The notes beneath the pieces were generated by a model. That model was not told where the DNA came from. It saw nothing but the letters and a program-made list of their open reading frames with translations, and ran no database searches. DNA of 63,762 nucleotides, the filler included, from Globobulimina sp. (taxonomy: Eukaryota): assembly GCA_003354225.1 (NCBI GenBank). It is 34 parts of 34 records of this genome, joined end to end, with 100 filler letters (N's around TTAATTAATTAA, not from the genome) between each part and the next. Parts side by side here need not be neighbours in the genome. Positions count along the whole stretch, not along the records: positions 26,309 to 28,086 come from PIVH01012047.1; 33 more parts are not named here. One strand, given 5' to 3'. Within the stretch, counting starts at the first letter, position 1, and each line of letters starts with the position of its first letter. A program made the position numbers and the translations under genes. Shown piece by piece: positions 26,032 to 58,813 of the stretch.

Positions 26032-26314
26032 TAGACTCCTGCTAACTAACTTTTTTCTGTGAGCTATAACTGAAAGGTTCAATTACATTTCACTTCCGCT
26101 TTAGTCTGCCAACTTTAAATCGGTTTCCCATTAATGAATTTAACCCAATTTAGTATTAAATTCATATGAAACCGATTCAAAGCAATCTAAAATTCGCCTC
26201 TCCAGATTNNNNNNNNNNNNNNNNNNNNNNNNNNNNNNNNNNNNNNNNNNNNTTAATTAATTAANNNNNNNNNNNNNNNNNNNNNNNNNNNNNNNNNNNN
26301 NNNNNNNNAGTATA

Positions 26315-27871
26315 ATGGCACAACAACAACAAACCGATGTAACATTCAATATAACACTTGGAAATGCAGCCAAAACATTCAAATTAAACAAGAATCAGGC
26401 AATCCTTAACAATGTGAAAAATAAAATCATTGAATTATTTCCAGCTTTAACCAATAAAACCTGGTCACTTAAAAGTAAATATGGCTTTGAAATAAAAGAT
26501 CCATTCACATTATACGGCACAAATATATTCAATTTAAAAGTAACCCTAAATGAAGTTGCAAAAAAAGAATCGATTCAAGCTGATGAAGATTCGGATGCAG
26601 ACGAAGAAGAAGTGCCAATTATTATCGATTTAGGATCATATTCAACAAAGGCAGGTTTTGCTGGCGATGATATGCATAGATCAGAAACAGCGACAAAGGT
26701 CGGTCGACCACGTCATCAGGGTGTTATGGTTGGGATGGGTATGTTTTATATAATTAATTAATTACATGGCTATTCTCTCTGTTTCTGACACAGGGCAAAA
26801 AGATGCATATGTTGGAGGTGGAGCTTGCATCGGATTTTCAGGTATATATATTACTAAATAATTAATTTTGAGTGCTAATATAATGCGTAATTGCGTATAG
26901 TTGGTGGAGCTAAGGATGTTAATAATTTTAGAGACGCAATTAATAACAATATAATACCAAAATTATCCTCCATTTCGTACAGTGGATTATTTTATGATTA
27001 TTATTTTCAAACAGAAAATGATGCAAAAGTTGAATTATTATCAAAAAGCAACACTGCAAACGCGGATATGATCGAAGAGGATGAATATGAAAGTAAAAAA
27101 AAACAAAGTAATGTGAATGCAGCAAATAAATTTGAAGGAGAGATGTTTTATCCATCATATTGTTACGCAAAATGTAAACCATTACAATCTGATAAAGGTG
27201 GTGATGAATATGAATATTATATAACGTGCGGCTTGAATAGTAATATCAAACAAAGTGATTTTAAACGAAATGTATTAAACTTAGTAATCGTTTTAGATAT
27301 TTCAGGTTCTATGAGCAGTGCATTCAGCGGTGGCAGGAAAACAAAAATGAACGTTGCCAATCAATGTTTATGTGATTTATTGGACCATTTAGAGGCTGCG
27401 GATAGATTTGGTTTGGTATTATTCGATACGGAATCAATTGTGTTTGAGAAGTTAAATATGGTTAAAAACATAGATATATCGTCTTTAAAAAGCAGAATAA
27501 ACACAATTAAAACCAGAGGTGGTACTGATTTGGAATGTGGATATTTAAAAGCAAAAGAATTATTAGATGGAGTAACTGATATTACAGATAGTGATAACAG
27601 AAGCAATCGCATTATTTATTTAACGGATATGAATCCAAATCGAGGGATAACAGATAAAGATGGGTTATTGGGCTTGACTGCCACTTATGTCCAACAAGAC
27701 ATATTTTCAACATTCATTGGTGTCGGCATTGATTTTAACACAGATTTGGTGAGTTATATAACTGCGTTAGAAGGCTGTAATTATTATACTGTTAAATCCG
27801 ATTTTACAGGACGGATTTATCGTATTTCTTTCAGAAACCAGTTGTTTTATACTTTTTTTAAGAGTGTTTAA
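26315..27871 (+). CDS. Fusion gene: N-terminal domain + actin N-terminal fragment + vWA domain; introns 26739-26793 and 26842-26900; 3' end probably chimeric after ~27800
   Basis: [18 protein letters not shown]...[40 protein letters not shown]...[14 protein letters not shown] (MIDAS)...TRGGT...IIYLTD. Confidence 0.8.
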
Positions 27872-28252
27872 TGCTTTTGTTCTAACATTGCTGGTATTGT
27901 CAAAACAAATTCTCTGATACTGCTCTGCATCTGTGGTGCTTAAGCTTATTCTGATATCGTTTGTTTTAAGTGCTTCTTTCCTTCTTTTTTCTGAATTTAG
28001 CAGAAGTCCGTTTGTAAAGAGTTTTACCGGGAGTTTTATTTCATTTGCTGAATATGTAATCCAGGACATTGTTGTTATATCCGTAANNNNNNNNNNNNNN
28101 NNNNNNNNNNNNNNNNNNNNNNNNNNNNNNTTAATTAATTAANNNNNNNNNNNNNNNNNNNNNNNNNNNNNNNNNNNNNNNNNNNNATCTCACATTTGGC
28201 ACCGAGCAGTGCTCAAAACTTAGTTCAAAACATCAAGTTCTCAAAGCACTAG

Positions 28253-58231: not shown

Positions 58232-58813
58232 CGTGATTTAACCGATTATTTAATGAAAATCTTGACGGAGAGAGGTTATTCCTTTACGACTTCTGCAGAA
58301 CGAGAGATTGTGCGTGATATCAAAGAAAAATTGGCGTATGTTGCTGAAAATTATGATGAAGAATTAAAACGAGCAGAAACGTCGTCGGATATTGAGAAAA
58401 ATTACGAATTACCGGATGGCCAAGTCATTACAATCGGGGCGGAAAGATTTCGTTGTTCGGAAGTCTTATTTAAACCGTCTTTTATTGGCAAAGAGAGTGA
58501 AGGTATTCATAAATTGGCGTATGAATCCATTATGAAATGCGATGTTGATATTCGACGCGATTTATATACAAATACGGTGTTATCTGGTGGCACGACAATG
58601 TTTCCCGGCATTGATGTTCGATTAACCAAAGAGATGACCGCTTTGGCTCCGGCCAGTATCAAAGTTAAAATCGTAGCTCCGCCAGAAAGGAAATATTCGG
58701 TGTGGATTGGTGGCAGTATCTTAAGTTCGTTGTCGACGTTTCAAGAGATGTGGATCTCCAAAGATGAATATGATGAGTCTGGCCCTGGTATTGTGCATAG
58801 AAAATGCTTTTAA
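58232..58813 (+). CDS. ACT: Actin, C-terminal half
   Basis: [18 protein letters not shown]...[16 protein letters not shown]...IVHRKCF. Confidence 0.98.

Follow-up and report, generated by a model that had tools for sequence, protein, structure and literature searches.

A divergent foraminiferan-type actin that probably carries a complete vWA protein nested directly behind its D-loop

In filamentous actin (F-actin), each subunit inserts its D-loop between subdomains 1 and 3 of the neighboring subunit, into the cleft there; in conventional actin, the loops D11–G15 and D154–H161 bind phosphate, and Q137 and H161 are catalytic. Actin-related proteins (Arps) keep the actin fold while combining lineage-specific loop insertions with altered nucleotide handling, and some act at filament ends. 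Here, we describe a gene in a 63,762-base stretch of DNA from Globobulimina sp. (hereafter the window) that joins an N-terminal domain, a piece of actin that includes the D-loop, and a von Willebrand factor A (vWA) module with a metal-ion-dependent adhesion site (MIDAS). The window probably holds the 5′ ~1.4 kb of a spliced foraminiferan-type gene for a divergent actin paralogue, with a complete vWA protein embedded in subdomain 2 immediately after the D-loop.

One of the closest described systems is conventional actin (Pfam PF00022). The two actin halves of the family studied here together span the actin profile, the C-terminal part (C-part) is 53–63% identical to actin, and residues 35–55 reach up to 20 of 21 identities. 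The family differs in that a ~540-aa vWA protein interrupts the fold after residue ~55, in an extra N-terminal domain, and in the replacement of G15, Q137, D157, G158, and H161; its divergence greatly exceeds that found among actins themselves. With Arps (Arp1–Arp10), it shares an actin fold that has a lineage-specific insertion and altered nucleotide handling. Unlike them, it lies nearer to actin by sequence (best matches are actins, E ~1e-146), and its insert is a complete foreign multidomain protein rather than a loop.

Chlorarachniophyte ubiquitin–actin fusions likewise place a small N-terminal domain and an acidic linker ahead of actin, within Rhizaria. P0456 and P0458–P0460 (JGI) read ubiquitin–GG–acidic linker–actin and are 449–463 aa long; their lengths match those of the Bigelowiella ubiquitin–actin fusions given in PMC6332867. 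According to that paper, which cites Archibald et al. 2003, the fusion has not been found beyond Bigelowiella and the taxa nearest to it. The N-terminal domain described here differs: It is without sequence likeness to ubiquitin, and no GG cleavage site stands ahead of the acidic linker, which sets it apart from the ubiquitin–actin fusions.

The inserted module (hereafter the cassette) resembles prokaryotic membrane-anchored vWA proteins of ~550 aa, annotated as “VWA domain-containing” or “Ca-activated chloride channel family.” It spans the whole mature prokaryotic protein at 38–45% identity with the MIDAS intact, but it has lost the signal/transmembrane (TM) anchor and is embedded in cytoplasmic proteins of eukaryotes or attached at their end. 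The bivalve PARP4 proteins P0126 and P0127 also have an acidic linker, the same actin stretch ending ..QKDAYVG, and a vWA domain; they differ in lacking an actin C-part, in domain order, in having a vWA of the VIT–vWA type, and in belonging to an unrelated lineage. P0126 (Magallana gigas PARP4) and P0127 (Mytilus edulis PARP) read BRCT–PARP–VIT–vWA, with actin ~2–54 and the acidic linker near the C terminus; P0126 additionally holds a piece of the Hsp70 substrate-binding domain (Pfam HSP70 profile 417–517).

In the titles, abstracts, and passages covered by a literature search, neither an actin that encloses a vWA protein nor a cytoskeletal protein that carries this cassette is described, and no paper pairs Reticulomyxa with von Willebrand. 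In the text passages of Krabberod et al. (10.1101/064030), “vWA” has 0 occurrences. As far as could be found, a natural actin that holds an entire foreign protein next to its D-loop is undescribed.

Joining three exons by their coordinates gives 457 codons without a stop, with two GT..AG introns of 55 and 59 bp removed. The frame reads, in order, N-terminal domain, acidic linker, actin residues ~8–55, and vWA domain; its start, MAQ.., is common to P0270, P0001, and P0002, and the G+C content of the gene’s DNA is ~31%. The features are as follows, in window positions:

26309–28086, no strand: contig with the actin–vWA gene, placed by the N-block map and the sequence, with N + TTAATTAATTAA spacers on both sides
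26315–26738, plus strand: exon 1, 141 codons + 1 nt, with ATG at 26315, N-terminal domain, acidic linker, and actin residues ~8–48
26315–26554, plus strand: N-terminal domain of ~80 aa, predicted beta-beta-alpha-beta-beta and beta-grasp-like, no Pfam match
26555–26617, plus strand: acidic linker, from translation; acidic in all relatives
26618–26738, plus strand: first piece of the actin N-terminal part (N-part; residues ~8–48, including the D-loop), from Pfam Actin (E 1.8e-08) and the residue map
26739–26793, plus strand: intron 1, 55 bp, GTATGT..CAG, phase 1, within the codon of actin Gly48
26794–26841, plus strand: exon 2, 48 bp, with QKDAYVG (end of the actin N-part, to 26816), a GGAC linker, and IGFS (start of the cassette)
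26842–26900, plus strand: intron 2, 59 bp, GTATAT..TAG, skipped by contigs of runs X2, X6, and X7
26901–27801, plus strand: exon 3 as far as transcript-like contigs match the window; cassette predomain and vWA domain
27278–27799, plus strand: vWA domain (Pfam VWA, residues 126–299 of the exon-3 protein)
27296–27310, plus strand: MIDAS motif DISGS, from the sequence; Thr (GGT) and Asp (LTD) follow further on
27802–28086, minus strand: contig tail, not a continuation of the gene; minus strand open, weak radical-SAM likeness, no GT donor

Splicing was checked by aligning contigs from four public runs (X1, X2, X6, and X7) to the contig at 26309–28086. Both introns are skipped at the predicted borders in a 1671-nt contig of X2 (11 differences over 1320 aligned nt), a 1601-nt contig of X6 (63 differences over 1330 nt plus one 6-nt insertion), and a 320-nt contig of X7. 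The joins run from 26737/8 to 26793/4 and from 26839–41 to 26899–901; intron 1 is removed exactly in X2 and X7, and in X6, 56 nt are skipped with one letter between. Contigs of X1, a DNA-like run, read through the introns. The runs with the spliced form stem from two studies, and the exact loss of two GT..AG introns is most simply explained if their contigs are transcripts rather than an intronless DNA copy. The two-intron, single-frame model proposed in the initial annotation is thereby confirmed, as are its module order, by translation and Pfam, and its placement of the actin/vWA junction inside the 48-bp exon. Its gene end near 27800 does not hold: The match to the window stops at 27801 in the X2 contig and at 27798 in the X6 contig, and both continue in frame for at least 255 letters (..KSEMDFKKRM..), fitting the family sequence there.

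The relatives of this gene carry the nested architecture in full. A search with the exon-3 protein returned 358 proteins at E ≤ 1e-3 among 1679 candidates. The three best matches, P0001, P0002, and P0003 (50–67% identity), have the same N-terminal domain, acidic linker, actin piece, and cassette. The remaining matches, with ~40% identity, are ~550-aa vWA proteins of prokaryotes, in which a signal/TM segment is followed by a GF(S/A)VGGAKD motif, in keeping with the prokaryote-like vWA type named in the initial annotation. In P0001 and P0002, a single open frame begins at the start codon, crosses the actin piece, and reaches the vWA domain, so the actin/vWA junction lies within one exon in those organisms; beyond ..G(V/I)GID, both end in apparent read-through of an intron that the window does not have (27700–27740). 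Intron positions vary among relatives, P0001 and P0002 being without both introns that flank the window’s 48-bp exon.

With the exon-1 protein as query, a full scan returned 626 matches at E ≤ 1e-3, only P0121, P0001, and P0122 matching the whole query, and an exon-3 search for longer proteins gave 1699 proteins among 7062 candidates. The long members are P0122 (999 aa), P0273 (1090), P0270 (1049), P0271 (1041), and P0274 (1039), drawn from EukProt, JGI, and ENA (relatives overall also include Logan records). In each of these five, the untruncated members, the cassette is followed by actin residues ~54–375. The window piece is therefore most likely the N-terminal half of an actin fold split in two, and only the 5′ part appears in the window because the contig breaks. 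Two of the five are from the foraminiferan Nonionella stella, and the nearest named relatives are the benthic foraminifera N. stella and Bolivina argentea, which agrees with the foraminiferan affinity first suspected. The initial annotation would have been refuted had the orthologous vWA genes in related taxa all lacked the actin segment; the orthologues keep it.

Over its 457 aa, the spliced protein aligns end to end with P0270/P0271 (59%), P0122 (60%), P0001 (61%), and P0002 (58%). In P0122, Pfam Actin (E 1.3e-109, 367 bits) matches in two stretches that jointly cover the profile, the C-terminal one (683–999) corresponding to profile 48–410. Against solved structures, P0122 residues 94–144 correspond to actin 3–53 and residues 688–999 to actin 55–371 of 6iug_A (E 4.3e-146); judged by these alignments, the two halves of actin complement each other. 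Alignment to 40 actins places actin 1–53 on P0122 89–140 and Val54 onward on P0122 683 onward. The insert with its linkers (P0122 143–682, ~540 aa) matches a whole prokaryotic homologue, from first conserved motif to last helix. By comparison with these relatives, we infer that the window’s own gene would continue past the contig break into an actin C-part.

Two pairs of relatives part company downstream. P0121 has the N-terminal domain and actin N-part of P0122 (matched stretch 3–134), then ordinary actin without the cassette, and P0270 and P0271 are nearly identical for ~640 aa before differing throughout the actin C-part. These pairs could represent alternative 3′ parts, recent paralogues, or assembly chimeras formed via actin-identical words. 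P0138 (2641 aa, 11 stretches matching the N-terminal domain) was dropped as low complexity, with 0 passing Pfam stretches. A metagenome scan with P0271 found no relative, and one with an alignment as query found 80 loci, all ordinary actins, of which 0 matched the cassette.

Over residues ~52–300, the C-parts share 53–63% identity with a conventional actin; their mean identity to 40 actins is 54–63%, and those actins are mutually 79–87% identical. In a tree built from the 45 of 80 rows with enough C-part, the five C-parts form one clade apart from the 40 actins (support 0.934, rooted on an actin) on long branches (tree distance 0.95–1.2 vs. 0.23 for actins). Position G15 has become Y in nine of the ten sequences of the N-part alignment; among the five C-parts, Q137 is changed in four, D157 and G158 in all, and H161 in four. 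The phosphate loops of conventional actin (D11–G15, D154–H161) and its catalytic Q137 and H161 are thus not maintained.

In models, the C-part retains the actin fold. AlphaFold2 (AF2) was run twice on P0122, with alignments of 50 and 80 rows, the latter including 40 actins. Residues 687–999 superpose on actin 4pl7_A with Z 28.9 and a root-mean-square deviation of 3.6 over 296 aligned residues, and with Z 29.5 and 2.6 over 293; the best actin alignment of the models begins at residue 687–688, and the second model forms three short strands in the actin N-part. Identity in the structure rows is 51–55% to actin and 16–34% to Arps and other actin-family chains. A two-chain model of P0122 86–146 against 683–999 scored 0.88, the best of three controls reaching 0.01; actin structures have been solved many times, so this pass may reflect model memory and speaks to the likeness of the halves, not to binding. 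In microbes, 51 of 78 solved complexes attain the score mark, as do 2 of 108 mismatched pairs; in eukaryotes, the figures are 39 of 65 for solved pairs and 2 of 126 for unrelated ones. At least 97% of contacts agreed between runs, the partner’s predicted local distance difference test (pLDDT) score was at least 77, and strand 94–98 paired with 730–735, as for the subdomain-1 sheet.

Conservation within the actin N-part is uneven, as the initial annotation had observed. Residues 98–138 of the exon-1 protein match Pfam Actin profile 3–43 (E 1.8e-08, 33.8 bits; cut-off 27), and in the window, residues 35–55 are identical to conventional actin at 20 of 21 positions vs. 1 of 9 for residues 26–34. 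Across the family, the first stretch holds 18–20 of 21 identities in 7 of 10 sequences and the second 1–5 of 9. Contact stretches 143–148 and 166–169 and the plug at 262–274 are largely actin-like in relatives; with the window’s D-loop, the longitudinal and lateral contact surfaces of conventional actin are kept. A codon comparison with the X6 contig (~95% identical), which rests on an incomplete list of differences, gives two differences in the actin N-part, both synonymous; the N-terminal domain and linker have eight nonsynonymous and five synonymous listed differences, and the cassette six and ten.

That a third of the residues have drifted, the ATP site included, while the D-loop is kept letter for letter most plausibly means that the protein still contacts ordinary actin through this loop. 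Its actin-identical D-loop and conserved intersubunit surfaces would let it add onto, or cap, ordinary actin filaments. Given its degenerate phosphate loops, Q137, and H161, it would do so with no normal ATPase cycle, and the metal-dependent adhesion module would be displayed on the filament as a side arm or end piece.

The nested actin could instead be a nonpolymerizing scaffold, like nuclear Arps, with its D-loop identity owed to gene conversion with the many actin genes or to a nonfilament partner. The degenerate ATP-site residues and the long C-part branch fit such a protein, and true-actin contigs of X2, X6, and X7 overlap 26702–26740 with two to three mismatches in 37–39 nt, making the DNA alike enough for conversion. 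We nevertheless regard the scaffold as unlikely: Both filament faces remain actin-like, and the border between diverged residues 26–34 and conserved residues 35–55 recurs across members just 40–60% identical overall, which would require repeated conversion with the same ends.

Several observations weigh against a nested, filament-joining actin. The window lacks the actin C-part, the transcript-like contigs do not match the last 285 bp of the gene’s contig, and the longest transcript-like contig (X2) extends just 351 nt past the divergence. The runs with the spliced form are not on record as RNA, the kind of X2 being unspecified and RNA just a guess for X6 and X7. Stretches identical to actin can give rise to chimeras in transcriptome assemblies, and P0121, after its N-terminal domain and N-part, reads as ordinary actin. 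In both AF2 models of P0122, pLDDT stays below 50 across the actin N-part, which does not superpose on actin. Finally, polymerization could be blocked by the degenerate nucleotide site and by a 540-aa insert next to the D-loop.

Somewhat less probable than the scaffold is a product, or short isoform, that ends after the vWA module, leaving actin 8–55 as a free-standing D-loop mimic that docks the vWA onto actin, in line with the mimic that the initial annotation had favored. The window and four of nine relatives show this part alone, and the oyster and mussel PARP4 proteins (P0126, P0127) hold an actin 2–54 piece after an acidic linker. However, all four short relatives (P0001, P0002, P0003, and P0272) break off inside the cassette, at intron read-through or a contig end, and are uninformative on the C-part, whereas every complete relative has one. 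The transcript-like contigs, moreover, run on in frame past 27801, and an isolated beta1–beta3 segment of subdomain 1 has no cause to keep D11, G13, S14, and K18. A free-standing fragment is possible solely as a short isoform.

That the fusion is an artefact or dead copy, a contig chimera or rearranged pseudogene without function, is very improbable and for 26315–27801 largely refuted: The tail at 27802–28086 does depart from the transcripts, lacks a donor site, and has its opposite strand open with radical-SAM likeness, but spliced contigs of two other studies match the whole of 26354–27801 at ~95–99% identity, 457 codons are open, and the architecture recurs in nine relatives, limiting any chimerism to the tail. 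This tail joins the actin–vWA gene at 27802 without a splice site; its minus-strand frame is open for 105 codons, and the radical-SAM likeness is weak (Pfam E 0.024; Atlas 0.90–0.91). The cover of X1 ends at 27629, and no run contig spans 27810–28086. The tail may be a chimeric join, from assembly or amplification, or a rearranged copy; 26315–27801 is unaffected.

The domain that precedes the nested actin had been proposed to be PB1- or ubiquitin-like. The beta-beta-alpha-beta-beta order predicted by the AF2 models of P0122 (pLDDT ~85) agrees with this, and Atlas leads, all weak (0.82–0.85, below 0.9), name Rad60-SLD, ubiquitin, DWNN, and PB1. Ubiquitin itself is not supported: A Pfam search of the domain gave no family and no ubiquitin match, and hhalign against ubiquitin gave a probability of 0.2%.

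Within the exon-3 protein, Pfam recognizes VWA_2 (PF13519; E 7.8e-11, 43 bits, cut-off 27) and VWA (PF00092; E 1.6e-08, 35.4 bits, cut-off 23.8). The window has the complete MIDAS pattern DxSxS...T...D, with DISGS followed by the later Thr and Asp, and the corresponding residues D286, S288, S290, T365, and D400 (P0122 numbering) are at least 90% conserved. The cassette comprises a predomain, the vWA domain, a beta-sandwich, and a helical hairpin, modeled at pLDDT 80–96. The model resembles ITIH1 (6fpy_A, Z 20.1–20.4, over model residues 181–599), a Catenulispora vWA protein (4fx5_A, Z 19.7–19.9), and ArnB (8s05_B, Z 18.3–18.6). No VIT domain was matched by Pfam in the window protein or the examined relatives, and an NCBIfam scan of the cassette gave subthreshold rows only. 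Further contigs of X1, X2, X6, and X7 match the cassette only over short conserved stretches (~26901–27222) and have other letters at the acidic 27007–27146; several cassette paralogues are thus apparently present in the same organisms.

The same cassette occurs on other proteins. Among the matches listed (120 long relatives), its partners are 14-3-3 (two proteins), Tubulin_C (one), Snf7 (three), and the clathrin N-terminal region (one). The fusion proteins are P0278, P0279, P0295, P0275, P0297, P0320, P0361, P0329, and P0317; in the Snf7 fusions, the cassette separates the Snf7 core from a short C-terminal helix, and in P0317, it follows an N-terminal domain of ~150 aa. The start of P0275, read by eye, is presumably the last tubulin helix and acidic tail ahead of the cassette. 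Named members are again N. stella and B. argentea, the same foraminifera as for the actin fusions. In a cassette tree of 46 of 50 rows (P0001, P0002, P0003, and P0121, each with fewer than 300 cassette residues, were left out), all 11 fusion cassettes from foraminifera form one clade together with P0275 (support 1.0), within which the six actin-borne cassettes form a subclade (support 0.977). This single clade indicates one acquisition followed by spread to several host proteins.

Tails of tubulin, Snf7, and 14-3-3 are exposed in the assembled polymers, and a cassette on them would fit display on polymer surfaces. We tentatively suggest, as a possibility well short of even, that foraminifera grafted one prokaryotic vWA/MIDAS protein as a standard surface adaptor onto exposed loops and tails of their main self-assembling cytoplasmic proteins: actin subdomain 2, alpha-/beta-type tubulin tails, ESCRT-III/Snf7, 14-3-3, and the clathrin N-terminal domain. 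The polymers would thereby gain built-in metal-dependent cross-linkers, and the actin member would coassemble into filaments.

The window as a whole consists, by its N-block map, of ~34 pieces of ~1.78 kb from unrelated contigs, with 100-base spacers between them (44 N, TTAATTAATTAA, 44 N) that place stop codons in all six frames. Genes adjoining across spacers are not genomic neighbors. At 58235–58810 (plus strand) lies the 3′ half of an ordinary actin gene, 192 codons without an intron and 75–81% identical to conventional actins. We considered this segment as the missing C-part and rejected it, since it is only 46–60% identical to the family C-parts; judged by these identities, it is the organism’s normal actin rather than the C-part of the fusion.

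Actin is among the most constrained eukaryotic proteins. If the nested protein joins filaments, subdomain 2 would tolerate a 60-kDa insert, and F-actin would have an adhesion module naturally hard-wired into it. The molecular understanding of foraminiferan pseudopodial networks is poor, and the fusion proteins are defined enough for direct expression and testing. A cassette acquired once and fused to five kinds of assembling proteins points to lineage-specific construction of the cytoskeleton in foraminifera. Were the cassette indeed a standard surface adaptor of their polymers, it could be a molecular basis for the unusual, rapidly remodeling reticulopodial cytoskeleton.

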